Source of the DNA: Patescibacteria group bacterium UBA2135
GTDB taxonomy: Bacteria; Patescibacteriota; Minisyncoccia; Phycocordibacterales; UBA2135
DNA: 64,000 nt
Direction of reading: 5' to 3'
Assembly (NCBI GenBank): GCA_002327685.1
Contig: DCXN01000003.1
Coordinates: 6,981-70,980, forward strand
Shown here: in pieces, positions 1,854 through 52,090 of the stretch
How positions within the stretch are numbered: position 1 is the stretch's first letter
How the letters are laid out: the number at the start of each line of letters is the position of its first letter
Notes under the pieces: generated by a model
The model's input: only the letters and a program-made list of their open reading frames with translations
Databases searched by the model: none
What the model was told of the DNA's origin: nothing
Made by a program: the position numbers and the translations under genes

Positions 1854-1893
1854 GATAGATTTTTAACGAGCGTAGCGAGTATAAAAATCATCA
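1854..1893. promoter_or_regulatory. Duplicated 5' leader/promoter-proximal sequence (copy 1 of 2)
   Basis: GATAGATTTTTAACGAGCGTAGCGAGTATAAAAATCATCA immediately upstream of the start codon. The identical sequence precedes the rplJ start at 4559-4590. Confidence 0.5.
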
Positions 1894-2000
1894 AAATATA
1901 ATCACTTCGCTCATTATTTTATCAATTGTACCACCATTAAAACACCTGCCAACTTGACAACCCACAAAGCTCTCCCTCCCAACACCGTCCCACCCCCCCC

Positions 2001-3357: not shown

Positions 3358-3426
3358 CCGCCGCAAGGCCCGGCCTTACATGGGGATAACCTGTGCATAA
3401 ACCACCCCGCAAGGCCGGGCCTTGCG
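3358..3426. repeat. REP-like element, family 1 (copy 3)
   Basis: CCGCCGCAAGGCCCGGCCTTACATGGGGATAACCTGTGCATAAACCACCCCGCAAGGCCGGGCCTTGCG. Confidence 0.8.
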
Positions 3427-3499
3427 TAAGCTCCTCGCATGCCACACACAAAAAGCCCCTACAAAAGGGACTTTCCGCTCAAACCACTCAAAAAAACAA

Positions 3500-4036: not shown

Positions 4037-4558
4037 TTAATTCTTCGCCTCCGCGACCTGGTGCAACACACTCACAAACGACTGCGTCATCCCATTTAAC
4101 ACCTGAACAGTCTGCTGAACAGGCGCGTTTATAACCATAACAAATTGCCCAAGAAGAACTTCTCGAGAAGGTATCTTCGCAAGAGCAACAACCTCTTCTT
4201 TCCTCAAATACCTTTTTTCAAGAATACCACCCACAGCCGATACCGCATTTTCAAATTTCTTCTGAAATTCCGCGATACCCTTTGCCGGCAAAACCATATC
4301 CTCACCATAAGCAAGCGCAATTTCTCCCTCAAGCTCCGGCAAATCCCCTTCCATCTCAGCATCTTGAAGTACTCGCTTAAGCAATGTTTTCTTCACTACA
4401 ACATACGAAACCCCCTCCTTACGAAGCGCGCTCCGCATTTCACTTGCGTCAGTTACAGACAACCCATGAAAATTAACAAACACAACAGAGTTCGCATTCT
4501 CCACTACATCAGCAGCCTGTTTGACGATTTCTTCTTTTTTCTGTTTTGTTAAAGCCAT
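4037..4558 (-). CDS. rplJ: 50S ribosomal protein L10
   Basis: MALTKQKKEEIVK...VVFVNFHGLSV...LKR signature of L10. Immediately upstream of rplL. Confidence 0.9.
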   Translation of the reverse strand: MALTKQKKEEIVKQAADVVENANSVVFVNFHGLSVTDASEMRSALRKEGVSYVVVKKTLLKRVLQDAEMEGDLPELEGEIALAYGEDMVLPAKGIAEFQKKFENAVSAVGGILEKRYLRKEEVVALAKIPSREVLLGQFVMVINAPVQQTVQVLNGMTQSFVSVLHQVAEAKN

Positions 4559-4586
4559 GATAGATTTTTAACGAGCGCAGCGAGTA

Positions 4587-4900
4587 TAAAAATCATCACC
4601 CCCTCACTCGAAAATTAATTGGAAATGCTTCTTTTTATTCTCCTCTTTAAACTAATAAGAGCCCCCGCTCTTCGCTTAATTTGCCGTTCTCTTTCACGAG
4701 CATCCTGTTCTGATTTATACGCTTCATAATACACAACATCAAATGGCTTTCTATTTTCTGTTGATGACACATTTCCATTATTATGTTCTTTCACTCTTTT
4801 CTGTAAATCACTGGTATATCCAAAATATAAATCTTTATCTTTCAATGATTGTAATGTGTAGAAAAAGAACATAATAATTAATTTTCGAGTGATGGGGGTT
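4587..4900. mobile_element. Small element bounded by 24-bp terminal inverted repeats and carrying a GIY-YIG nuclease gene
   Basis: Left end CACCCCCTCACTCGAAAATTAATT (4587-4610). Right end AATTAATTTTCGAGTGATGGGGGTT (4876-4900). The same inverted repeats bound the non-coding element at 26880-27034. Confidence 0.55.
4615..4872 (-). CDS. GIY-YIG nuclease superfamily protein
   Basis: FFFYTLQSLKDKDLYFGYTSDLQKRVKEHN matches the GIY-x10-YIG...R...E...N pattern. 85 aa. Confidence 0.7.
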   Translation of the reverse strand: MFFFYTLQSLKDKDLYFGYTSDLQKRVKEHNNGNVSSTENRKPFDVVYYEAYKSEQDARERERQIKRRAGALISLKRRIKRSISN

Positions 4901-5123
4901 AAGAATTAAAAAGAGTCCTTCAAACAAAGGACCGGAGAAACGCTAGCCAACAAAATGGCTAACGAACAATTTCGACCTCGGCAGGACTTCTCGCGAGCTA
5001 CGCTCACGCGCCTACTGTCTCCGATCTTAGATAAAGTAAGTATATTCAATTTAGCCCCCTTGTCAATGCTTCAAATACTTAAACTTTAAATATTTAAACT
5101 CTTCCGTCTTTAACAAGAAACCA

Positions 5124-5197: not shown

Positions 5198-5413
5198 TTA
5201 AGCGCGGTGGCCATGAACCGGACATCCTGGCCAAAACCTGTGAACACTCGGACAAGTACATTTATACTTCTTCCCCATTCTCTTTGTTTCTTTCCTCATC
5301 CTTTTCTTCATTTTTTTTCTTAACTCTTTCTTCGCCTCCTTCAACTCTTCCCTCATCTTTTTCTTCGCTTCTTTATTCAACTTTTCACCTAGCGTTTGGA
5401 CACCCTTCGCCAT
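5198..5413 (-). CDS. Small Lys-rich protein with a C-terminal Cys/His cluster
   Basis: 71 aa. ...KYKCTCPSVHRFWPGCPVHGHRA. A duplicated 90-bp leader lies directly upstream. Confidence 0.4.
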   Translation of the reverse strand: MAKGVQTLGEKLNKEAKKKMREELKEAKKELRKKMKKRMRKETKRMGKKYKCTCPSVHRFWPGCPVHGHRA

Positions 5414-5503
5414 GATCTTACTCCTCTAGTCTTAGGTTTATGTGAACCAATCTGTCACCTATATAACACAACTTACAATTTAACACCAGCGTTGCAAGAA
5501 AAT
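5414..5503 (-). promoter_or_regulatory. Duplicated 90-bp 5' leader (copy 1)
   Basis: Identical to 5824-5913. Ends ...AGACTAGAGGAGTAAGAT(C/T)AT-ATG, with a GGAG RBS. Confidence 0.55.
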
Positions 5504-5625: not shown

Positions 5626-5823
5626 TCAGATATCCATGTCATCAATCGACACCCTCATCCCCTCTGCCATTTTTTTATCCGCCTCTTCTTTCTCTTTTAC
5701 TTTAGCCAATTTACCACTATCCACCACCATGATCGAATTAATCCTATCAATCGTCTTCTCCATTTTCTCCATTTTTTTCTTTAATTCTGCCACTTGTACT
5801 TCAATCTCCTCCAAAGTCGACAT
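5626..5823 (-). CDS. Small coiled-coil protein
   Basis: 65 aa, charged heptad-like sequence. Preceded by the same 90-bp leader as the 5198-5413 gene. Confidence 0.4.
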   Translation of the reverse strand: MSTLEEIEVQVAELKKKMEKMEKTIDRINSIMVVDSGKLAKVKEKEEADKKMAEGMRVSIDDMDI

Positions 5824-5913
5824 AATCTTACTCCTCTAGTCTTAGGTTTATGTGAACCAATCTGTCACCTATATAACACAACTTACAATTTAACACCAGC
5901 GTTGCAAGAAAAA
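5824..5913 (-). promoter_or_regulatory. Duplicated 90-bp 5' leader (copy 2)
   Basis: Identical to 5414-5503. Confidence 0.55.
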
Positions 5914-6328: not shown

Positions 6329-6397
6329 CGCCGCAAGGCCCGGCCTTACATGGGGATAAACTGTGGAAAACCTACCCCGCAAGGCCCGGCCTTGCGG
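6329..6397. repeat. REP-like element, family 1 (copy 4)
   Basis: CGCCGCAAGGCCCGGCCTTACATGGGGATAAACTGTGGAAAACCTACCCCGCAAGGCCCGGCCTTGCGG. Confidence 0.8.
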
Positions 6398-6720
6398 GTT
6401 TTTATATCCCACCCCTAAACACAAAATCACCTCATTTCCTAGAGCCTATTCACAATCTCGCCGCAAGTGAAAGAAATACTGCTCGCCGGCCAAAATCTCG
6501 AAATTCAGGCTGCAAATTATTCAAGACTCGTCGCCATATCTCGATATGCCTCCTCGTCTTTCATAATTTTCGCTCTGAATTTCGAAATTTATGGCTCGGC
6601 GCGAGATCGTAAACAGGCTCTAACGTCTCAAAATTAAAGCATCATTTTTTAAAAAACAATCCCGAAAATACATTATAAATTAAGGGTATTTTAGGAGCAT
6701 AAACAATCACCAAAAAACAC

Positions 6721-7272: not shown

Positions 7273-7341
7273 CGCCGCAAGGCCCGGCCTTACATGGGGA
7301 TAACTTGTTGATAAACTGCCCCGTAAGGCCGGGCCTTGCGG
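7273..7341. repeat. REP-like element, family 1 (copy 5)
   Basis: CCGCCGCAAGGCCCGGCCTTACATGGGGATAACTTGTTGATAAACTGCCCCGTAAGGCCGGGCCTTGCGG. Confidence 0.8.
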
Positions 7342-7378
7342 AAACAAAAACACGACCGAACCTTTTGGGTTCGATCGT
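7342..7378 (-). terminator. Rho-independent terminator for the 7401-7823 gene
   Basis: ACGACCGAACC-TTTT-GGGTTCGATCGT hairpin with a T-run on the minus strand. Confidence 0.55.
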
Positions 7379-7955: not shown

Positions 7956-8024
7956 CGCCGCAAGGCCCGGCCTTACATGGGGATAAGTTGTTGATAACCC
8001 ACCCCGCAAGGCCGGGCCTTGCGG
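7956..8024. repeat. REP-like element, family 1 (copy 6)
   Basis: CGCCGCAAGGCCCGGCCTTACATGGGGATAAGTTGTTGATAACCCACCCCGCAAGGCCGGGCCTTGCGG. Confidence 0.8.
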
Positions 8025-8079
8025 CATACCCAACCTTTCCCCCCCCACACAACACTGCTCTTACCTAACCACAGCCCAC

Positions 8080-10395: not shown

Positions 10396-10575
10396 CGAAC
10401 GGGAAAGGTCTGACCTTGAGGAAAAAACTGTGTCGCCAGGTCTGGCCTTGAGGAGGAGCGGAGCGACGGGAGAAGACCAGACCTTGCGGTACAGTTTTTG
10501 GGAAAAGGTCGGACCTCGCGGAGTCCATTTGCCGAACTGAGGAGTTTCAGCCCGAGACTGATCCGCCTCAGGCGG
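10396..10575. repeat. Family-2 GC-rich repeat array
   Basis: Units such as GGTCTGACCTTGAGG / CCAGGTCTGGCCTTGAGGAGGAGCGGAGCGACGGGAGAAG / ACCAGACCTTGCGG / GGTCGGACCTCGCGG. The core resembles the family-1 arm (CCGCAAGGYCCGGCCTT). Confidence 0.75.
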
Positions 10576-14129: not shown

Positions 14130-14199
14130 CCGCCGCAAGGCCCGGCCTTACATGGGGATAAGCTGTTGATAAACTACTCCATAAGGCCGGGCCTTGCGG
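14130..14199. repeat. REP-like element, family 1 (copy 7)
   Basis: CCGCCGCAAGGCCCGGCCTTACATGGGGATAAGCTGTTGATAAACTACTCCATAAGGCCGGGCCTTGCGG. Confidence 0.8.
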
Positions 14200-14285
14200 A
14201 CAAATGAATTTTTACCAAAACAAAAAAGACCGCCCCCTCGCATACGAAGCGAGGGTTTGGTCTCTCGTTTCGCCGAAGTGGCGGT

Positions 14286-19867: not shown

Positions 19868-20065
19868 AAAATTAGGGAGTCCTCCGACCCGAGTCGGAGG
19901 ATGACCATAATTTTTGCGAACCCCCACACCTTTCAAACCGTTGTTTTGCGAAGCAATATCACTATAATTTGAAAAACCAACTTCGTGAGCTATTTTGGCA
20001 CAGAGCGTTTTTTAACAGCAAAACGAAAGCTACGGTTTGAAAGGTGTGGGGGTAATAAAAACATA
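19868..20065 (+). ncRNA. Candidate structured small RNA or MITE-like element with a 21-bp perfect inverted repeat
   Basis: CCTCCGAC-CCGA-GTCGGAGG hairpin, then AACCCCCACACCTTTCAAACCG ... CGGTTTGAAAGGTGTGGGGG enclosing ~95 nt with nested stems. No ORF. A TATAAT-like box at 19819-19824 upstream and a bidirectional terminator at 20118-20152 downstream. Confidence 0.3.
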
Positions 20066-26654: not shown

Positions 26655-26879
26655 AGAATTGTCCTAAAGAGAAGAAGGATAATGTAGTGTCCGTTATTCT
26701 GTATTATATAAAAGACATGCATCGTGCATAGTTTACAGTCGCGAAGTTATAGGTTGTAGGAAGTAATACATTTGACCTTTGACAATTGACTCGACGAATA
26801 AGTCACGGGTTAAATGTCAAATGTTGGTAATATGTTATGATTAAATAAAATAACGAACGAAGTGAGTATATTTTGTTAA

Positions 26880-27034
26880 CCCCCCTCACTCGAAAAATTA
26901 TTGACGACGTAGAGCGAGGTAAATGGACGGGAAAGGTCTGACCTTGAGGAGGAGCGAAGCGACGGGAGAAGGTCGGACCTTGCGGAGTCCATTTGCCGAG
27001 CCGAGGAGTTAGTAACTTTTCGAGTGAGGGGGTG
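26880..27034. mobile_element. Non-coding MITE-like element with the same inverted repeats as the GIY-YIG element, carrying a family-2 repeat core
   Basis: Inverted repeats CCCCCTCACTCGAAAA (26881-26896) and TTTTCGAGTGAGGGGG (27017-27032) enclose GACGGGAAAGGTCTGACCTTGAGGAGGAGCGAAGCGACGGGAGAAGGTCGGACCTTGCGGAGTCCATTTGCCGAGCCGAGGAG. Confidence 0.55.
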
Positions 27035-27072
27035 CTCAAAAATTATAGTCGCTCCGCTCCTTAATTTTTAGC

Positions 27073-29355
27073 ATGACAAGAAAATACAAAAAAAGACGCG
27101 GGAAATCTTCTTTCCTGCCCGCATTAAAAGAAGAGACGCGGCGCTTCATATTCTCAATCCTCTCGTTTGTTATCGCGATCTTTTTTCTGCTTGCATACGC
27201 TAATCAAGCTGGAATTGTAGGAGAATCAATACGAAACATATTCAACAAATTCTTCGGTGTCGGATATTTCCTCTTTCCCGCCTTTCTCGTAGGAGCTGGT
27301 ATAGTATTTCTTTCAATAAAACGCACACATATTGCCGCGGCAACTTTTTTAGGCGGTCTTTTATTTCTCACATCCGGCCTTGCGCTAATCAGCACATTCA
27401 ATAGTGAGGCTGGAGGCATTGTGGGAGCGATACTCTCTTCTCCTTTTGTCGCACTCTTTGATACATTTGCCACAAAAGTGATCCTTATCGCTTTACTATT
27501 CGTCTCGTTACTAATCTTATTTGACGCAACCCCTACAAAGATTATTTCCTCTCTCTCCGAGCTGGCAAACTGGTTAAAAAATTTGGTGAGCAGAAAACAG
27601 GAATCACTAGATTCTGATGAATACGAGGAAGATGAAGACGGTGAAGAGGGTGAATATGATGATGAGGAGTATGATGAAGAAGACGAGATAGAGGCACAAG
27701 ACGAATCGGAAGGAGAGACTACGCACAAAGAAGACGCCGAGAAACGTACTGCGCCTTTTGCGCAAACACTATCGCAAACCAAAGAAAACATTCTTTCATT
27801 CGTACAGGCTACCTCAAAAGAGTACACTCCTCCCCCACTATCGCTTTTTGAAACAGACAAAGGCAAACCTGATGTTGGAGACATAAAAGCAAATGCGAAT
27901 ATTATCAAAAGAACGCTTCAACATTTTGGTATAAATGTTGAAATGGACGAGGTGTCTATCGGTCCATCAATTACACGTTACGCGTTAAAACCGGCACAAG
28001 GAGTAAAACTTTCCCGCATTATAGGACTTCAAAACGATCTATCGCTCGCGCTTGCGGCACACCCTCTTCGCATTGAAGCACCAATACCTGGAAGATCTTT
28101 AGTCGGTATTGAAATACCAAATAATAAAAAAACTATCGTTGGTCTTGGTTCACTTCTAAAATCGCCTGAAATAAAGAAAACATCTGCTCCACTTGCGTTT
28201 CCTATCGGACGCAGTATTACAGGAAATCCAATTGTCGGAAACTTAAACAAAATGCCGCACCTGCTAATCGCCGGAGCAACTGGTGCGGGAAAATCGGTTT
28301 CCCTGCACACGATTATTACATCGTTACTCCACCGTAATGCACCTACAAACCTTAGGATTATCATGGTAGACCCTAAGCGAGTAGAATTGACACTCTATAA
28401 CAATATCCCACATCTTCTGACACCAGTCATCACCGATCCTAAAAAGGCAATTTTAGCACTCAAGTGGGCCGGCAAAGAAATGGATCGCCGATATGATGTT
28501 TTAGAAGCAGAATCAGTACGCGATATCGCTTCATATCATAAAAATGTTGTTGAACCTGCTTATGCAGAACAAGCGCAGAACAAGCGCGGAACAAGCGCGG
28601 CGGAACAAGAACAAGAACAGGAAGTAAATCCACTACCAGAAACAATGCCGTATATTGTTGTCATCATTGATGAGCTAGCGGATATTATGAATCTATATCC
28701 ACGAGAACTTGAGTCAGCAATTGTACGCATTGCGCAGATGGCGCGCGCTGTAGGTATTCATCTCATTCTCTCAACACAACGACCACAGGTAAACATCATC
28801 ACCGGACTAATTAAGGCAAACATTCCAACACGCATCGCGCTTCAAGTCGCTTCACAAACCGACTCAAGAACAATTCTTGACATGGGTGGTGCCGAGAAAC
28901 TCTTAGGTTCCGGTGACCTACTCTATCTTTCAAGTGAGATGTCAAAACCGGTACGTCTGCAATCTGCCTATATCGGAGAATCAGAAATAAAGAAGATAAC
29001 TAAATTTCTCGCAAAGCAAAACAAAGACGGTAAATTTGATGTTGACGTACACATTAACTCTCCCAAGAAAGACGTATTATTTGAAGCAAACCTTGAAGAA
29101 AATCTGGAGGACAAAGAAGGCACCGAGGAAGATGAATTGTATGAAGATGCCCGGGAAATCGTCATTCAAAGCAAAAAAGCATCAACAACGTACCTTCAAC
29201 GAAAATTAAGAATTGGATACGCTCGCGCGGCGAGCATCATGGACATGCTTGAAGAGCGCGATGTTGTAGGGCCCGCGGAAGGATCCAAGCAAAGAGAGGT
29301 ATTAATATCCGCTGGTGAGGAGACAGATTATGATGATGAAAACGAAAGTATTTAG
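27073..29355 (+). CDS. ftsK: DNA translocase FtsK/SpoIIIE
   Basis: N-terminal transmembrane segments, an acidic linker (EYEEDEDGEEGEYDDEEYDEEDE), Walker A GATGAGKSV, and a C-terminal gamma winged-helix TTYLQRKLRIGYARAASIMDMLEERDVVGP. Confidence 0.9.
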   Translation: MTRKYKKRRGKSSFLPALKEETRRFIFSILSFVIAIFFLLAYANQAGIVGESIRNIFNKFFGVGYFLFPAFLVGAGIVFLSIKRTHIAAATFLGGLLFLTSGLALISTFNSEAGGIVGAILSSPFVALFDTFATKVILIALLFVSLLILFDATPTKIISSLSELANWLKNLVSRKQESLDSDEYEEDEDGEEGEYDDEEYDEEDEIEAQDESEGETTHKEDAEKRTAPFAQTLSQTKENILSFVQATSKEYTPPPLSLFETDKGKPDVGDIKANANIIKRTLQHFGINVEMDEVSIGPSITRYALKPAQGVKLSRIIGLQNDLSLALAAHPLRIEAPIPGRSLVGIEIPNNKKTIVGLGSLLKSPEIKKTSAPLAFPIGRSITGNPIVGNLNKMPHLLIAGATGAGKSVSLHTIITSLLHRNAPTNLRIIMVDPKRVELTLYNNIPHLLTPVITDPKKAILALKWAGKEMDRRYDVLEAESVRDIASYHKNVVEPAYAEQAQNKRGTSAAEQEQEQEVNPLPETMPYIVVIIDELADIMNLYPRELESAIVRIAQMARAVGIHLILSTQRPQVNIITGLIKANIPTRIALQVASQTDSRTILDMGGAEKLLGSGDLLYLSSEMSKPVRLQSAYIGESEIKKITKFLAKQNKDGKFDVDVHINSPKKDVLFEANLEENLEDKEGTEEDELYEDAREIVIQSKKASTTYLQRKLRIGYARAASIMDMLEERDVVGPAEGSKQREVLISAGEETDYDDENESI

Positions 29356-29432
29356 TATCTGGTATTTAGTATTTAGTATACGATTAAATTTTTTTATACT
29401 AGATACTAGATACTAAATACTTGATACCCATG
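29341..29432. repeat. AT-rich inverted-repeat region built from ATACTAAATAC / GTATTTAGTAT units
   Basis: GTATTTAGTAT x3 followed by ATACTAGATACTAGATACTAAATAC. The same unit family occurs at 33781-33875. Confidence 0.5.
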
Positions 29433-30942: not shown

Positions 30943-31070
30943 AGCCAGGTCTAGCCTTGAGGAAAAAACTGTACGGCCAGGTCTGACCTTGAGGAGGAGC
31001 GGAGCAACGGGAGAAGGTCGGACCTTGCGGTATAGTTTTCGGAAGAAGACCAGACCTTACGGACCTTGTC
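30943..31070. repeat. Family-2 GC-rich repeat array
   Basis: CCAGGTCTAGCCTTGAGGAAAAAACTGTACGGCCAGGTCTGACCTTGAGGAGGAGCGGAGCAACGGGAGAAGGTCGGACCTTGCGG...GACCAGACCTTACGGACCTTG. Confidence 0.75.
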
Positions 31071-31230: not shown

Positions 31231-33078
31231 CTAATCCCCTATTGAAAGATTAGGATATTTGGTACGCAGGTCATCTCTTTCCGACAAAATGAGACCACTA
31301 AGATGAACGTTGCCGTCTACACGTTTTGGTAATTTAAGACCTTCGGATGATGTTAAGCCACTAAGATGAAGATTGCCGCTTACATTTTCGGGCAACTTAA
31401 GACCTTCAGATGATATTAAGCCATCAAGATTAAGACCACCGTCCATATGCTCGGGAAAATTGAGGTCTTTAGCTGACGTTAATCTTTCGAGATTAAGGCC
31501 GTCGCCTATATATTCGGGAAGATTGAGGCCTTTGATTGAGGTTAATCTGTTGAGAACCAGATGCCCACCTACATATCCGGGTAGCTTAAGACCTTCGACT
31601 GATGTTAATCTGAAGAAGTCAAGGTTGCCACCTACACGATTAGGTAATTTGAGCCCTTCGAACGAGGTTAAGTTATTGAGATAAAGGTTGCCACCTATAT
31701 ATTCAGGTAATTCAAGACCTTTAGTTGACGTTACGTCTTTGAGGTCTAAATGACCAAGGTGAAAAAGTATGCCACCTTGTAGAGCTTCTTCTTTGGTTAT
31801 ACTTACCTTATCTTTTGGCACATCAAATGCGAAAGATAAATCTTCTTTAACGTCTCTTTGATTTTGTATCTCTTTAATACGCGAGTCTCGTTGATGACCG
31901 AATCCTTCAATCTTAGAATCAATTTCGTAAAGAAATTTTATGTCGTCTTTTGAAAGTTCTTCGCCAGCCCGCCCTGAGTCTTGTCGAAGGGTTTTTCTCT
32001 CAATCTCGGTAAGCCGCTTCATGTCAGAAGTCTTCTTTTTGTATTGCTCTCCGTCAGGGAATTCCTGGAGTTTTTCTTCCACCACAGGAGCAATGTTTGA
32101 ATCAAGGTTTTGCTGTTCAGCTATGCCACGGACTTCTGCGATTTTGCCTTGTTGCATACGAATAGCAGCTCTCGGAATTATTGGTTTCCCATCTTCGTCG
32201 TATGAATAATATACATAAAAGTCACCTCCTTTAAGTTGTGTTTCCGCGGTTGACTCTCCCGCGGTACACCATCCTGTACCATGTCCTTGGAGAGAATGTA
32301 CCAATGGCATATGGTCTGAATTTCTGTCATATTTTATCCATTTTCCTTCTGTTCCGATTAGTTGTTCTTTTGACGCAGGTGTAATGCTTTCTATCGCGAA
32401 AGCATAGAGTTTGGAGAAGTTTTCGCCCTGGAGGAGTTCGTTAAATTTTTTCTGCTTTTCTTCATCAAACAAATACACGTCTAAATCTTCTCCCTTTGCT
32501 TTCTCTTCTATAGAATCAAGGACATAAGCCAAAGCTTCTCTGTTTAAGTCTGGGAATGGTTTTACAGTACCTTTTGTTCGCTTGGTGAATGATTTTTTCT
32601 CTTTGTCGTATTCACCCATTCCAAGCATACTTCGAAATGCGTAGTACTTTAACCAATCGGGGTATGTGGCATCTTTTGATGACAGATAGTCAGTCCATAC
32701 ATCCATGGAGCTTTTTTGGTCTGTGATGATAACTTCTGTCGCCTGCTCGCGAAGTTCTCCGCTAATCTCTACATCGCCGTGTCCTTGTTCACGCGCTATT
32801 CTCTGTTGAGCATCAAAATAGCTTTCGGATATTTCATCTTCCTTTATGACAAACTTGTCATAAAGCACCTTTTTCAGAGCTCGCATGCCGCGTTCGCGTT
32901 TTTCGGGATCTTCACGTTCAATAATCTCCTTAAAGCGATTAAGGTAGTTTTGTATCTGCTCTGTTGGTTTTTGTGGCACACGCTCACCCGTGATGGTTTC
33001 CGCACGCCTTGTAGCAGATTTCACCTCCGGTTTATTATGTAAATCGTATTTTTTCTTTAGAAATTCAGGATTTTCCAT
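31231..33078 (-). CDS. Leucine-rich-repeat protein (unknown N-terminal domain plus ~8 C-terminal LRR-like 23-24-aa repeats)
   Basis: Repeats LKLPxxVGGNLxLxxLTSxEG at the C-terminus. 615 aa. Confidence 0.55.
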   Translation of the reverse strand: MENPEFLKKKYDLHNKPEVKSATRRAETITGERVPQKPTEQIQNYLNRFKEIIEREDPEKRERGMRALKKVLYDKFVIKEDEISESYFDAQQRIAREQGHGDVEISGELREQATEVIITDQKSSMDVWTDYLSSKDATYPDWLKYYAFRSMLGMGEYDKEKKSFTKRTKGTVKPFPDLNREALAYVLDSIEEKAKGEDLDVYLFDEEKQKKFNELLQGENFSKLYAFAIESITPASKEQLIGTEGKWIKYDRNSDHMPLVHSLQGHGTGWCTAGESTAETQLKGGDFYVYYSYDEDGKPIIPRAAIRMQQGKIAEVRGIAEQQNLDSNIAPVVEEKLQEFPDGEQYKKKTSDMKRLTEIERKTLRQDSGRAGEELSKDDIKFLYEIDSKIEGFGHQRDSRIKEIQNQRDVKEDLSFAFDVPKDKVSITKEEALQGGILFHLGHLDLKDVTSTKGLELPEYIGGNLYLNNLTSFEGLKLPNRVGGNLDFFRLTSVEGLKLPGYVGGHLVLNRLTSIKGLNLPEYIGDGLNLERLTSAKDLNFPEHMDGGLNLDGLISSEGLKLPENVSGNLHLSGLTSSEGLKLPKRVDGNVHLSGLILSERDDLRTKYPNLSIGD

Positions 33079-33780: not shown

Positions 33781-33875
33781 TCTCGTATCTAGTATCTCGT
33801 ATTTTGTATAAAAACTAAAAAAAATTAACCGTATATACCATACTAAATACTAAATACCAGATACTAAATACTTTC
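33781..33875. repeat. AT-rich ATACTAAATAC-type repeat region
   Basis: ATCTCGTATCTAGTATCTCGTA...ATACTAAATACTAAATACCAGATACTAAATAC. Confidence 0.5.
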
Positions 33876-33876
33876 G

Positions 33877-34434
33877 TTAATTGTTAATTTTACTATTTAC
33901 TTTTTTAAACTCTCGCTTTGCGCGATAAATGCGTGTTTTTACCGCAGATATGGAAATGCCTTCAAGTGCGGCAATTTCTTTCTGTGGCATGCCATCAAGA
34001 AAATGAAGTTTTAACGCCCTACCCAACTGTTTAGGCATTCTCGTCAAAACAGAAGCTACAAAATCATATGTTTCAACATCCTCTACTTTGTCGGGAAATG
34101 CTTCATATACTTCCTTTTCAACCCGTAATAACGCGCCATCACTTTTCTTTAACTTCTGATAGTGTGAAAAGGTTGTGTTCAATAGTATTTTATATCCCCA
34201 TGATTTGAATGAAGCGCCCTGCTGAATTTTAAACCGGCCCGCATTTACATAAATTTTTACAAATGTTTCTTGCACAATATCATCAACTTCTTCCCGAGGA
34301 CCCAATATCCCACGCACCTTATTAAGAAACGGTGTTTGATAACGTTCAATCAACACCTCAAATACTGCCGGTTTTTTTACCGACAGAAAAAGAATCTCCT
34401 CATCACTTTTATCATGAAGTTCTTCGTGTTTCAT
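33877..34434 (-). CDS. RNA polymerase sigma factor, ECF (sigma-70 family)
   Basis: Region 2 (...DIVQETFVKIY...) and region 4 HTH (LDGMPQKEIAALEGISISAVKTRIYRAKREF). Start placed at the internal Met at 34434. Confidence 0.75.
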   Translation of the reverse strand: MKHEELHDKSDEEILFLSVKKPAVFEVLIERYQTPFLNKVRGILGPREEVDDIVQETFVKIYVNAGRFKIQQGASFKSWGYKILLNTTFSHYQKLKKSDGALLRVEKEVYEAFPDKVEDVETYDFVASVLTRMPKQLGRALKLHFLDGMPQKEIAALEGISISAVKTRIYRAKREFKKVNSKINN

Positions 34435-34444
34435 ACCTTTAATA

Positions 34445-34534
34445 CCTACAACATACAACTAACAACCTACAACTTAAAACCGATTGTGTTGATTGCTAGT
34501 CACCAGTTGTTAGTTGTTAGTTGTATGTTGTTGG
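34445..34534. promoter_or_regulatory. Long hairpin (29-bp arms) between rpsR and the sigma factor gene
   Basis: CCTACAACATACAACTAACAACCTACAAC ... GTTGTTAGTTGTTAGTTGTATGTTGTTGG. Confidence 0.5.
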
Positions 34535-34723
34535 TTATTTTGAGACATACGGCAAAAAACCCATAAAACGAGCTCGTTTCACCGCTTCAGAAATTTTTCT
34601 CTGATTGCGAGCGCTCACTTTTGTATATTTCTTTGAGACAATGCGAGCATGCAAATTAATATACTTTTTCAGCGTCTCAGTGTCCTTATAGTCTATATAT
34701 TTTAAGTTTGTGGCGTTATTCAT
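34535..34723 (-). CDS. rpsR: 30S ribosomal protein S18
   Basis: ...YIDYKDTETLKKYI...ARNQRKISEAVKRARFMGFLPY. Start taken at the internal ATG, which has a GGAGCGAAGGAAC RBS. Confidence 0.8.
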   Translation of the reverse strand: MNNATNLKYIDYKDTETLKKYINLHARIVSKKYTKVSARNQRKISEAVKRARFMGFLPYVSK

Positions 34724-45594: not shown

Positions 45595-45744
45595 ACGCAG
45601 TTTTAATGCACACATCGGCGAGGCTCGCCTCTTAGGCGGCCCGCCTTTTGGCAAGTGAAACTATTTTTGATAATTTATCCATAAATTGCTTACAACTTTC
45701 AACTGTTTCTATGGCGAAAATTAAATCATCACGGTTTCGTTGTT

Positions 45745-45882
45745 CGTCATAGGTCGTAGGTCGTTCGTTGTAGGTCGTTCGTTGTAGGTTGTTTGTCGTA
45801 GGTCGTTCGTTGTAGGTCGTTCGTTGTAGGTTGTTTGTTGTAGGTTGTTTGTTGTAGGTTGTTTGTTGTAGGTTGTTTGTTA
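45745..45882. repeat. Tandem repeat, 14-bp period x ~10
   Basis: (C/T)GTTGTAGGT(C/T)GTT repeated. Lies between the 45880-47808 gene stop and the glyQS start. Confidence 0.8.
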
Positions 45883-47808
45883 CTCGTCTTTAGGCAACAC
45901 TACCTTCCCCTGACTAAAAATAAAGTTCGGGTCAGTGCTAAGCGAAGTATCAAGCGCCTTACTTGAAAGACGCGCGACTGTCTCTGTAAACTCATCAACT
46001 CCTGAAAACGTTGACTCACCAATTACCGTCGGAGTCTGGTTGAGATGCGACAAGCTTGGCATAAGTTTTACCTGAAATGCAACCTCTCGCGGCGGCAATG
46101 TCATACCCGACCCCGCCTCAAGCCGATCAATGTTCCATACCACTTCGCGAGACGATTCATTGTATGAAATATTTTCACTCATTGGCGTAAAAACTCCCAC
46201 CCATTTAACATAAGGAGGTAAAACTGCTTTGACCATTGAGCGAGAGACATGATTTGACGAATTAACAGCCGTAAAAACAACTGTGTATGTTGTTTCGCGC
46301 TCAACTTCCGGCGGTACAGGACCTGTGTTTATAAACGGTCCAACAAAATATACCATACGAGACGTAAATACAACATCAGAGGCAATTTTAATCGTACGCT
46401 CAATTGAATTTTCAACTCGCTCATCAACGCCTGACTCCGAAAGTCGCTTACCACTTGTAGTTACAACAATATCAACAGTTGGATTTTTAAATAGTGAACC
46501 GCTTGTGGTAAAAAGCGGCTGCAACGCAAACCGAAAACTTGTTCTTCCCTGCGCGCCAGACTCAATGTCCGCAAGATCCGGCAGTGAATTCTTATCCCAC
46601 AAAATCGTGTTATCAGCTGAATCAAAGAATCCATTACGCGGCTTCACTGAAAGTTCATTAATAACATCACCTGAAAGCTTTGCTTCAATGCGCGCGTCAA
46701 CAATTTTGGTCGGCAAGTTATTTGTCCATACGACCTCAACGTCAACAAGCGAGCCGCTTCCCACAGCTGGTTCTTTTCTTGTTTCTCCATTGACAAACAA
46801 AAGCGTACTCAAGAAAGGGCGCGCAATTGAAATAGTAGATATTGATGTATTGTATGTAACCCCGAGTTCATTTTCTTTCTCTTTGGATTTAGCGCCGCTT
46901 GAAACCCGGAATACTTTCTCTTCCCCATCTTGCCCTTCAAGAATTCCGCGAACAACAATCACGCGCCGTGCCCGCGGCGCCAAATCACCAATAAGCCATT
47001 TGTTATCGCCAGATACGGCCTGCGGCTCAGCCCCAAGAAATGAAAAACCAAACGGATAGTCTATCTCGACAGCAAGATCACGAGTTATTATGTCGGTATT
47101 TGATATGACTGTAGCTTTAATTTCAAATTCCTGCCCTGCCACCGCTTCAGAAAGTGTCTCTACGGTAAGGCTGGTAGCAGAAGAGCTGATATGTATTTCA
47201 TGTTCTTTTTCTTTTACAAAAATGGCATTAGAATCTTCTACTCTATACTCAAGTGTAATATTAAATTTCTTTTCATCTCCTTCTTGTCCAAACAATACAA
47301 GCCGCAAAGGTTCTTCAATAACCTCCCCTGCTTCAATACGATCAAGCGATTTACGAAAGTTGGAAAGTTCTGTTTTAAGTTTGCCAACACTTCTTGTTCC
47401 TTGCGGATATTCAACCAAAAAATCAACAAATTCAAGAGGGACACTATTGTTATTTTCAATTACAATTTGGAGTTGCACTTCTTCACCCGCGGGCGCCGCA
47501 ACAGGGCCTGAAACAAGAATGTCCACATTTTTTGTGGAGATAACATTAGAATCACGCAGCAAAACAAATGAAGCAACAATCATCGCAAGAACAAAAAAGA
47601 GTATTGAGATAATGAAAAATTTTTTCCAGAATGGCATGATTGGTTTTTTTGCGTCCGCAGGATCCGCTTCTTCGGCTTCCCACCCGCTTTCACCCTCCCC
47701 GTCATGTGTATGAAGCTCAAAGCGTTCACTTGGAGGCAAATTCGCGCCACGCCTATACAAAGACTTTTTAAGCCGCTCTATCTTCCCCTCTTTTTTCACC
47801 TTAGACAT
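45880..47808 (-). CDS. Membrane-anchored large hypothetical protein with repeated beta-rich domains
   Basis: 642 aa. N-terminal transmembrane segment after a charged cytoplasmic head. Extracellular Ig-like repeats. Confidence 0.6.
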   Translation of the reverse strand: MSKVKKEGKIERLKKSLYRRGANLPPSERFELHTHDGEGESGWEAEEADPADAKKPIMPFWKKFFIISILFFVLAMIVASFVLLRDSNVISTKNVDILVSGPVAAPAGEEVQLQIVIENNNSVPLEFVDFLVEYPQGTRSVGKLKTELSNFRKSLDRIEAGEVIEEPLRLVLFGQEGDEKKFNITLEYRVEDSNAIFVKEKEHEIHISSSATSLTVETLSEAVAGQEFEIKATVISNTDIITRDLAVEIDYPFGFSFLGAEPQAVSGDNKWLIGDLAPRARRVIVVRGILEGQDGEEKVFRVSSGAKSKEKENELGVTYNTSISTISIARPFLSTLLFVNGETRKEPAVGSGSLVDVEVVWTNNLPTKIVDARIEAKLSGDVINELSVKPRNGFFDSADNTILWDKNSLPDLADIESGAQGRTSFRFALQPLFTTSGSLFKNPTVDIVVTTSGKRLSESGVDERVENSIERTIKIASDVVFTSRMVYFVGPFINTGPVPPEVERETTYTVVFTAVNSSNHVSRSMVKAVLPPYVKWVGVFTPMSENISYNESSREVVWNIDRLEAGSGMTLPPREVAFQVKLMPSLSHLNQTPTVIGESTFSGVDEFTETVARLSSKALDTSLSTDPNFIFSQGKVVLPKDE

Positions 47809-47862: not shown

Positions 47863-48053
47863 CCGCCAGGTCTGGCCTTGAGGAGGAGCGGAGCCGAGTC
47901 TGACTCGGCGCAGCGACGGGAAAAGGCCGGACCTTGCGGAACGGTTTTTTCTAATTTGCAGACCTTGAGAAAAAAACTGTGCAGCCAGGTCTGGCCTTGA
48001 GGAGGAGCGAAGCGACGGGAAAAGGCCGGACCTTGCGGAACAGTTTTCCGCAG
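47863..48053. repeat. Family-2 GC-rich repeat array (two large units)
   Basis: CCAGGTCTGGCCTTGAGGAGGAGCG(G/A)AGC...GACGGGAAAAGGCCGGACCTTGCGGAAC(G/A)GTTTT x2, one unit with an inserted CCGAGTCTGACTCGG hairpin. Confidence 0.8.
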
Positions 48054-48150
48054 TTTCCCCCCATTCCATCAGAACCTTGCAAGGTTTTGATAGAATGTTA
48101 ACAATTTAGGCAAAATTCCCCTCAATTTTATATGAATACAGCAATTTTTA

Positions 48151-51371: not shown

Positions 51372-52090
51372 GCATTTTAATCAATTTAATCAAAAAGAAC
51401 GCACGCGGTGCGTCCTTGCTCCTTGTTGACAGAACTATACTACAAATCCACTACCTACGCAATCATCTTTTTGAAACGCCGTCAGGTCTGGCCTTCCCGC
51501 CTGCCATCGCCCGACTGACCTTTGCGGACGATTAGGCAGTGGCGGGCAGGGAGGAGGAGCGGAGCGACGGGCCTCGGTCTCGGATAATTCTATACCAAGC
51601 ACTACAAGGCTTTTCTGACGGCTTTTAGTTTACTGTTTCAATGCTCCTCGGAACAAAGTGTAAATTGCTTATCCTCGTAAAACAAGCTATCCTTAGATTG
51701 GATGCTTGAGCAGTGCCGAGGCTAATACGGCGAGATCAGCACGCTAGCCCGAATACCTCGACAGTACTTTGACCGGCCTTAGCTTCAAAGTTGAGGAACG
51801 TCGTCCGTAACTATAACGGACCTTCGCTTGAGCATCCACTTTCTTCTAGCCATTTCTTTGGAAGTGGTTTTTCTATTATAAGAAGCTCTTCATACTCTGA
51901 TCATACTCTGAACCTACCCCGAACTACCTGACTGCTTAGAACGATGTTGAAACCTGTTTTATTTTATCAAATTAATCACTCGACAAAGATTCAAATGGCA
52001 GATAATGCTCGAATATTTTAATGAACATCGAGCTGTCCACAGAAACAAGAAAGCCGCCTACTTCAAACATAAAGTGACGGCTTATATTAA
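51372..52090. other. About 720-nt ORF-free region (candidate leader or ncRNA) containing a disrupted family-2 repeat
   Basis: No ORF of 60 aa or more in any frame. Mixed GC. Several stems (AACGCAC-GCG-GTGCGT; CCGCCTGCC...GGCAGTGGCGGG). The family-2 core (51481-51584) carries a 50-nt insertion. Confidence 0.35.
51481..51584. repeat. Family-2 repeat, disrupted copy
   Basis: GTCAGGTCTGGCCTTCC-[50-nt insert]-AGGGAGGAGGAGCGGAGCGACGGGCCTCGGTCTCGG. Confidence 0.6.

Follow-up and report, generated by a model that had tools for sequence, protein, structure and literature searches.

A minimal GIY-YIG nuclease gene enclosed by hairpin arms in the rplJ leader of a Patescibacteria genome, and its putative mobility

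A nuclease gene fills a hairpin loop between the L10 leader and rplJ

The 64-kb stretch of DNA analyzed here (the window) comes from a marine Patescibacteria (Candidate Phyla Radiation, CPR) genome bin and carries, immediately upstream of rplJ, a small GIY-YIG nuclease gene lying in the loop of a hairpin. We call the hairpin together with its gene element B (4599-4898). The same locus is present in several public assemblies, including GCA_002688065.1 and a 107-kb contig. The features of the locus are as follows.

4037-4558, minus strand: rplJ (ribosomal protein L10), directly downstream of element B (Pfam Ribosomal_L10, E=1e-20)
4559-4598, minus strand: right outer module of element B, TGATGA plus TTTTTATACTCGCTGCGCTCGTTAAAAATCTATC, abutting the rplJ ATG and 98% identical to 1854-1893
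4599-4620, minus strand: 3' arm of element B, AATTAATTTTCGAGTGAGGGGG in gene orientation, overlapping the stop codon
4615-4872, minus strand: stand-alone GIY-YIG nuclease gene of 85 aa, an open reading frame (ORF) filling the hairpin loop (Pfam PF01541, E=1.3e-15)
4876-4898, minus strand: 5' arm of element B, CCCCCATCACTCGAAAATTAATT in gene orientation, ending 3 nt before the ATG
4898-5042, minus strand: L10-leader-like RNA (RF00557) with terminator hairpin, its 3' end touching the 5' arm
4914-4933, minus strand: terminator-like site within the L10-leader-like element
5039-5066, minus strand: promoter-like site TTGACA-16-TATACT upstream of the leader, matching 11 of 12 consensus positions

The ORF is intact and is bracketed almost exactly by the two arms, CCCCCTCACTCGAAAATTAATT at 4599-4620 facing the sequence at 4876-4898, whose reverse complement is CCCCCATCACTCGAAAATTAATT. 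They pair over 22 bp with one mismatch or, read differently, one bulged A, and the outermost base is unpaired; an initial annotation made from the sequence alone had recognized this bracketing and erred in the length of the repeats, which it put at 24 bp. No target-site duplication was found at element B. A search of the window for the 16-mer arm core with up to 3 mismatches returned 7 matches against 0.56 expected from shuffles, and the 4 with no more than one mismatch are precisely the arms of element B and of a non-coding unit upstream of ftsK (element C). The window holds two cognate arm pairs (elements B and C), plus one pair of another arm type (element D). The idea that the arms are a generic terminator or repetitive extragenic palindromic (REP) motif at most intergenic sites of this genome was rejected, since they are confined to these sites. 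The initial annotation had named a generic REP motif as the finding that would undo its proposal, and this came half true: with two pairs in 64 kb the arms are not generic in the window, but across the phylum they form a REP-like dispersed family.

In gene orientation, the locus runs from the promoter-like site through the L10-leader-like RNA and its terminator hairpin to the 5' arm, then over 3 nt to the GIY-YIG ORF, the 3' arm, the outer module and the rplJ ATG. Element B lies between the leader RNA and the start codon and therefore within the rplJ leader, not at the promoter; its earlier placement in the promoter-proximal region of rplJ is corrected accordingly. The leader matches RF00557 over its full length at 35.7 bits (E=4e-4), which is below the gathering score of 44. 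Five related loci preserve its sequence and hairpins, which makes it a probable divergent member of this family (L10_leader). The leader is also kept in relatives without the insert, and the promoter-like site is conserved in loci L008 and L219-L222. At gathering thresholds, an Rfam scan of the window gave 0 matches to known RNA families, and scanning 18 related loci returned tRNAs only.

The protein is a bare GIY-YIG core with a basic helix

Pfam searches of the 85-aa protein returned only PF01541 and overlapping models of the GIY-YIG clan. Residues Y5, Y16, G18, R26, H30 and E50 are invariant in 30 homologues; from an alignment by eye, we take Tyr5, Tyr16, Arg26, His30 and Glu50 to correspond to the catalytic residues of I-TevI. 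The AlphaFold model (pLDDT 94) consists of a bare GIY-YIG core (beta-beta-alpha-beta) and one long basic helix, and neither the domain search nor the model showed a DNA-binding or strand-transfer domain. The closest solved relatives are the UPF0213 proteins BH0048 (E=1e-12) and EF2693 (E=9e-10), followed by the nuclease domain of SLX1 and the catalytic domain of I-TevI. UPF0213 and the SLX1 nuclease domain are also the best matches in the PDB, with a Foldseek TM of ~0.6 to SLX1, and a weak match to a group I intron endonuclease model was obtained as well.

Gene and arms occur together across Patescibacteria

The protein's relatives make up no fewer than 7,888 protein clusters, and those of the best 120 listed that have a named source all come from Patescibacteria. 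Current annotations of the clusters say only "GIY-YIG nuclease" or, in error, "excinuclease ABC subunit C". A scan of metagenomes found more than 543 relatives. A flanking stem was present in 57 of the 81 evaluable homologues from metagenomes and genomes, with a mean of 19 bp; the median gap between the 5' arm and the ATG is 4 nt, and the 3' arm sets in 3 nt short of the stop codon's end. In the stem-bearing homologues, the ORF is the exact loop of a stem with a C-rich and a G-rich strand.

Even where the contexts are unrelated, homologues of 65-77% identity have arms that are the same or that differ by compensated changes. Locus L008, from a groundwater lineage, has its homologue upstream of rplJ with the same arms, while that of L014 lies between a T2SS-F gene and a pilin gene and shows compensating changes in both arms (CCCCCACACTCAAAAACTAC / GTAGTTTTTGAGTGTGGGGG); homologues in L018 and L039 adjoin type IV coupling protein genes, and L101 belongs to the same set. 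Arm sequences vary by subfamily (CCCCCTCACTCGAAA, CCCCCACACCAATT, CCCCTCACCCAGAAA and others), and the arms within each element always match. The TCACTC arm type accounts for 6 of 8 stems at 65% protein identity or above, and the ACACC type for 18 of 21 stems at 55-65%. Arm type tracks protein clade, and the two arms covary. The genes downstream are functionally unrelated (L10, three times including the window; L21; GroES; RuvC; MraZ; ABC transporters; type IV secretion), and about one-fourth of the nuclease genes stand immediately upstream of a co-oriented tRNA, the 3' arm there overlapping the first tRNA bases.

Tandem paralogues of the gene exist. Locus L152 has three divergent GIY-YIG paralogues within 1.7 kb (1307-2955), with a non-coding arm-bounded unit of ~108 nt (about 1945-2053) between them. 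In L154 (2780-2905) and L165 (405-592), the 3' arm is immediately followed by a truncated 5' half of a tRNA, with the complete tRNA another 50-120 nt along, and a degenerate copy of the 3' arm with the first tRNA bases is found upstream of the 5' arm. Several units are located within type IV secretion (conjugation-like) clusters with PrgI, TraC-like, VirB4-like and coupling-protein genes (L224-L233, L018, L039), which are a possible route for horizontal spread. Protein P0024 was considered as a case of one protein in different contexts and was discarded, as its 10 places shown (24 contigs read) all belong to one type IV secretion cluster. Units in 5' leaders such as that of rplJ and beside tRNAs also give rise to spurious N- or C-terminal extensions of annotated proteins (P0005, P0010, P0040, P0041).

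Arm-bounded units are gained, lost and copied

By comparing the window with L008, we found that L10 is 25% and L7/L12 50% identical, while the GIY-YIG proteins share 75% identity and the arm cores with the next bases are identical; the nuclease gene is conserved far more than the host genes. A third lineage with the gene upstream of rplJ is represented by L157. Loci of rplJ lacking the insertion, which the initial annotation had proposed to look for, were found in the four closest L10 relatives (60-66% identity). They keep the promoter, leader and terminator; the GIY-YIG gene, the arms and the outer module are all missing ahead of rplJ. The rplJ site is thus occupied in some lineages and empty in close relatives, and the element is discordant with the relatedness of the host gene.

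Two loci of one Saccharibacteria genome, L030 and L035, carry 107-nt units that are identical at 105 of 107 positions (98%), and their outer hairpins are only about 60-70% identical. Near-identical inner units in diverged flanks mean that a recent copying or conversion event affected the inner unit separately. These comparisons across genomes show that arm-bounded units are gained, lost and copied. An indel between L014 and L016 was rejected as a trace of the element; it is a local tandem duplication.

Hairpins without the gene share a regular architecture

Related genomes, whose search the initial annotation had proposed, were scanned for hairpins with the query GAGTGWGGGGGTGCTC, one genome per species, and the same arms were found with and without the gene. 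Matches in high-GC genomes were many by chance and none had a partner arm, while those in low-GC Patescibacteria all had a partner arm upstream. The units measure 27 and 47 nt (plain hairpins), 101-108 nt (a tight group), 114-152 nt, and 279-299 nt with the gene, and several genomes hold 2-6 hairpin copies in partial data. In the ~102-nt class the loops are AT-rich, for the most part unstructured, and bear no sequence relationship to one another, even in a single genome; longer non-coding loops contain GC-rich structured repeats, like the unit upstream of ftsK. We rejected the short units as deletion derivatives of the gene, because their loops share no similarity with it, and inconsistent reading frames excluded both small protein genes within them and a conserved coding N terminus in the right flank.

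Twenty-three units could be oriented with TGCTC on the right, and in nearly all of these loci the unit is co-directional with both neighbor genes. In most, a gap of about 42-72 nt separates the end of the upstream ORF from the left arm, and one of about 20-70 nt separates the right arm from the start of the downstream ORF; none of the 23 lies within a plausible co-oriented gene. Their flanks read ...TTA on the left and TGCTC on the right and contain no direct repeat, that is, no target-site duplication.

The space between arms and genes is itself structured. A left outer hairpin of ~60 nt (TAAAGG...CCTTTA) reaches from the upstream gene's stop codon to the left arm, which it abuts, and a right outer hairpin of ~65 nt (TGCTCAAT...ATTGGCA) abuts the right arm. 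About 17 of the 23 right hairpins end in ..GCATG, i.e., with the A of the downstream ATG, and most TCACTC-type loci have outer hairpins on both sides. The loop motif GAGC..GCGA on the left, or its complement on the right, occurs in 8 and 6 of 23 hairpins, respectively, against a background of 0.8%, and the wrong orientation was never seen among the 23 loci. Given these complementary loop motifs, the whole structure is a nested imperfect palindrome.

Other units of the window

Besides element B, the window contains the following arm-bounded units and related sites.

26850-26880, plus strand: left outer motif of element C (ATAACGAACGAAGTGAGTATA...)
26881-27032, plus strand: element C, 152 nt, arms CCCCCTCACTCGAAAA / TTTTCGAGTGAGGGGG around a structured non-coding core with a family-2 repeat
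27033-27072, plus strand: right outer hairpin of element C (TGCTCAAAAATTATAGTCGCTCCGCTCCTTAATTTTTAGC), its stem closed by the A of the ftsK ATG (27073)
19920-20053, minus strand: element D, non-coding, arms ACCCCCACACC.../...GGTGTGGGGGT of 28 nt, 93% complementary
1863-1917, minus strand: site A, an inverted pair of outer motifs that lacks inner arms and has a spacer of only 13 nt, immediately upstream of gene 1218-1853

Element C had been described in the initial annotation as a 155-bp non-coding element at 26880-27034 with the same repeats and a family-2 core upstream of ftsK, which holds apart from its measured extent. The arm CCCCCTCACTCGAAAA at 26881-26896 has its exact complement at 27017-27032 and corresponds to the core common to the element B arms. 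With RNA parameters, the whole element folds at -87.5 kcal/mol and the core at -58.6 kcal/mol (z=-8.0); a permissive Rfam scan of element C gave no match. The end of element C is 40 nt from the start of ftsK, in which Pfam confirmed the FtsK domains, and the element's orientation follows this local plus-strand gene, while most genes of the window are on the minus strand. The family-2 structured repeat (AGGTCTGACCTTGAGGAGGAGCGRAGCGACGGGAGAAGGTCGGACCTTGCGG) is found at 10406-10546, 26934-27010, 30947-31063, 47868-48071 and 51551-51571, and in the element C core it spans 26934-26985. Only the copy at 26934 is arm-bounded. Because the core belongs to a separate repeat family found elsewhere without arms, it may be loop cargo of the hairpin and not have arisen from the GIY-YIG element by deletion.

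Element D belongs to the other common arm type (ACCCCCACACCTTTCAAACCGT... / ...ACGGTTTGAAAGGTGTGGGGGT), is oriented as the flanking minus-strand genes, and folds as DNA at -33 kcal/mol (z=-6.3). Elsewhere, its arm type accompanies a GIY-YIG clade of 50-63% identity; no such gene is present in the window.

The outer module (TTAACGAGCGnAGCGAGTATA...) has only five copies in the 64-kb window, all beside arm units or site A: one next to element B, an inverted pair around the ftsK unit, and an inverted pair at 1863-1917. This confinement led us to reject a general promoter or leader as its identity. The 35-bp duplication reported upstream of the 1218-1853 gene was confirmed and extended; it measures 44 bp at 98% identity (1850-1893 versus 4555-4598), includes both start codons and represents the outer module. 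Its likeness to an empty site was also borne out, in that 1863-1917 looks like the outer scaffold without the inner unit. The two outer motifs of site A pair with each other on folding (z=-2.5), which makes it a candidate unoccupied scaffold.

Comparison with known systems

The closest known system is Ssn. Chenal et al. (Nat Commun 2025, PMC11893778) described site-specific nucleases, 94-aa single-domain GIY-YIG proteins (CDD cd10448), that bind NTS/SRM hairpin repeats in single-stranded DNA and cut beside them, and that act on neither double-stranded DNA nor RNA. The repeats, of which there are hundreds of dispersed copies, also lie on both sides of the ssn genes, and the authors likened NTS-ssnA-NTS to insertion sequences and RAYT/REP; Patescibacteria are not mentioned in the main text (PMC11893778). 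The family studied here likewise consists of single-domain GIY-YIG proteins of ~90 aa, with genes hemmed on both sides by hairpin-forming repeats within a few nucleotides of the stop codon. These repeats also lie scattered over intergenic sites, their sequence covaries with the protein, and the host lineages are host-associated with small genomes. Our family profile also detects the protein of the N. gonorrhoeae ssnA locus at 42.7 bits, a locus that was taken from a chromosome filed among plasmids and recognized by nine dRS3/NTS repeats within 1.4 kb. Two UPF0213 chains scored 51.3 and 42 bits with the same profile, and by these scores the Patescibacteria family appears about equally distant from Ssn and UPF0213/YhbQ. 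Unlike the Ssn system, the Patescibacteria units have a low copy number here and abut start codons and tRNA 5' ends.

The minimal GIY-YIG core followed by a basic helix is shared with UPF0213/YhbQ/YazA (PDB 1zg2, 1ywl) and SLX1, although the window protein lacks the G-x-GAKYT segment of aligned UPF0213 sequences; our literature searches found no hairpin repeats described as flanking UPF0213 genes. SLX1 requires SLX4 and contains a RING domain. A similar organization is known from REP/REPIN sequences with RAYT (TnpA-REP) and from IS200/IS605, in which a nuclease gene lies between inverted copies of a palindromic repeat that it presumably disseminates. The hairpin-based logic, the lack of target duplications and the strict orientation agree with REP/RAYT, but the fold is GIY-YIG and not that of an HUH/Y1 transposase, making this an analogy without homology. 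Free-standing GIY-YIG homing endonucleases (I-TevI, phage T4 Seg) are comparable as selfish nuclease genes between host genes in the same orientation, dependent on host transcription and patchy at a fixed site. These enzymes have long DNA-binding domains and are not nested in hairpins, and we know of no cognate non-coding repeats for them. Neisseria Correia elements, which are bacterial miniature inverted-repeat transposable elements (MITEs), are also small intergenic units bounded by inverted repeats beside gene starts. They have TA duplications and encode no protein, whereas the Patescibacteria units lack duplications and some copies hold the nuclease gene. No description of this element in Patescibacteria was found in literature searches.

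A mobile partnership of nuclease and hairpin, and its alternatives

We favor, as probable though far from certain, the reading that 4599-4898 is one copy of a Patescibacteria-wide partnership between a nuclease and its cognate hairpin, which is mobile, keeps the gene in the hairpin loop, and works by a mechanism that we draw by analogy. Gene and hairpin are associated, several copies occur per genome, units keep a fixed orientation between co-directional genes, and gain or loss has taken place at rplJ. The step from this association to a mechanism is inferred by analogy with Ssn/NTS and RAYT/REP. By that analogy, the nuclease would recognize its cognate hairpin together with the asymmetric flanks (...TTA left, TGCTC right) in single-stranded DNA and nick beside the hairpin. 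Through repair or template switching at the breaks, arm-bounded units, among them the one with the gene, would then be copied into further cognate hairpins and, once transferred horizontally, into new genomes as well. The gene lacks a promoter of its own, so that a copy would be retained only where it shares the direction of host transcription and lies a short way upstream of a start codon or the 5' end of a tRNA. A bolder proposal, which is possible but which we regard as rather doubtful, is that of a new class of minimal autonomous mobile element of ~300 bp throughout Patescibacteria, in which an 85-aa GIY-YIG nuclease in the loop of its own cognate hairpin spreads through hairpin-directed nicks in single-stranded DNA and copying from loop to loop, with no transposase and no target duplications, and lands precisely in the gap that separates a stop codon or leader from the start codon or tRNA 5' end that comes next.

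Several observations weigh against the mobile partnership. Among about 200 loci, no orthologous filled/empty pair was found at a hairpin site. Right outer hairpins opening with TGCTCA were never found without the right arm in ~27 low-GC loci, all 20 following it. The placement of the outer hairpins at stop and start codons, together with the strict co-orientation, hints at an RNA-level role that the favored model does not explain. As regards the analogy with Ssn, the UPF0213 score is at least as high as the Ssn score, the SRM pattern HGTCWY..YYVSBRH..WNVSBRG..RNCYNB has 0 matches in the 64-kb window, and the gene lies in the loop of one hairpin whose halves are the arms, as opposed to between complete hairpins in NTS-ssnA-NTS. 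Copy number in the window is also low, at two cognate pairs and one of the other type.

The initial annotation had proposed an autonomous and non-autonomous pair. The specific arms shared by both units and the gain, loss and copying across genomes agree with this, while derivation as a terminal inverted repeat (TIR) transposon with MITEs does not fit the missing duplications and unrelated loops. In a classical cut-and-paste TIR transposon, the GIY-YIG protein would be the transposase and would mobilize the non-coding units in trans. Such a transposon would explain why inverted arms bound coding and non-coding units alike, why the units are multicopy and dispersed, the near-identical non-coding copies at two loci of one genome, and the presence or absence at rplJ; nevertheless, we consider it unlikely. 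No junction that was read has a target-site duplication, the 85-aa catalytic core includes no recognizable transposase, and our literature searches found no GIY-YIG-only transposase; the absence of duplications and of a transposase makes "TIR transposon plus MITE" the wrong label. The non-coding loops of one genome are unrelated to each other as well as to the gene, and there is no space for a promoter or ribosome-binding site between arms and ORF. Furthermore, the distal parts of the arms differ between elements and always match within one. Element-specific arm extension with complementarity always kept therefore points to hairpin logic, not to two copies of a protein site. A free-standing homing endonuclease would keep the palindrome but change its role: a dimeric nuclease would cut an intact double-stranded palindrome at short-loop sites, and break repair would copy the gene into its center. 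The gene does lie at the exact center of the palindrome, with uninterrupted 27- and 47-nt forms in the same genomes. Presence or absence at the same site, conservation far above the host genes, and the weak matches to the model of group I intron endonucleases and to the catalytic domain of I-TevI could be read the same way. We judge homing to be quite improbable, since the DNA-binding domain that gives known GIY-YIG homing enzymes their specificity is missing, the homology that different sites share in their flanks is short and diverged, gene homing leaves unaccounted for the unrelated, constant-length non-coding DNA in many loops, and viral contigs were not found to carry the family.

The arms and outer hairpins might instead be transcribed intercistronic structures, such as a site processed by RNase III, an element stabilizing the 3' end of the upstream mRNA or a structure that presents the start codon downstream, with the GIY-YIG gene as a passenger or as a host gene whose translation is throttled by the stem. 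The co-orientation with both flanking genes in nearly all 23 loci, the hairpins reaching from the stop codon and to the start codon, the arms abutting the ATG and stop codon of the ORF, the orientation of element C against the prevailing strand, and the seldom use of Shine-Dalgarno sites in this genome are all what an RNA-level module would predict. The stem mismatches, however, show no sense-strand G-U excess (8 G.T-type versus 10 A.C-type), and the reverse-complementary, never misoriented loop motifs of the outer hairpins amount to a DNA-level symmetry. The units also appear horizontally mobile, the closest relatives' rplJ does without them, no Rfam family matches, and the characterized relative Ssn is inactive on RNA (PMC11893778). 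On balance, we assign this possibility little weight.

The mobile partnership of nuclease and hairpin would extend the one-year-old Ssn concept of a tiny GIY-YIG nuclease with hairpin repeats to Patescibacteria, with another repeat and another geometry, and adds comparative evidence for gain, loss and copying of the pair. It also suggests what a very large family of proteins, with at least 7,888 clusters, may do, and each nuclease/hairpin pair is a candidate sequence-specific tool for single-stranded DNA. Patescibacteria naturally take up DNA, and their genetics depends on transformation; a hairpin-directed nuclease of single-stranded DNA could matter for their genome dynamics and engineering. 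If the autonomous hairpin-loop element proved true, it would be among the smallest self-propagating DNA elements known and would give a biological role to uncharacterized minimal GIY-YIG proteins of the Ssn/UPF0213 type.

Other repeats and signals in the window

A 96-nt direct repeat with 98% identity is located at 5407-5502 and 5817-5912, among small ORFs upstream of the rplJ leader. A GC-rich family-1 repeat (CCGCAAGGCCCGGCCTTACATGGGGATAA...CCCCGCAAGGCCGGGCCTTGCG) has at least 10 copies between 236 and 20950 and leads to spurious ORFs with recurring peptides, e.g., QGPALHGDKL...ARPGLA. Examples of its copies are the following.

236-323: family-1 repeat
2002-2089: family-1 repeat
3361-3448: family-1 repeat
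6331-6418: family-1 repeat
7275-7362: family-1 repeat
7958-8045: family-1 repeat
14133-14220: family-1 repeat

A perfect 39-nt inverted repeat (81 nt at 75%) at 29341-29379 and 33840-33878 surrounds a 4.4-kb segment with two large genes, which could be invertible or mobile. Six 63-nt repeats in register (31295-31735) encode a repeated 21-residue unit in a 615-aa minus-strand ORF, and a tandem array with a 14-nt period (TTCGTTGTAGGTCG-like) occupies 45722-45903, with related inverted copies at 34444-34535. A strong Shine-Dalgarno site precedes only 2 of 40 long ORFs of the window, and many TATAAT-like boxes lie 6-8 nt before an ATG; the scarcity of the former and the position of the latter suggest that leaderless mRNAs are widespread.

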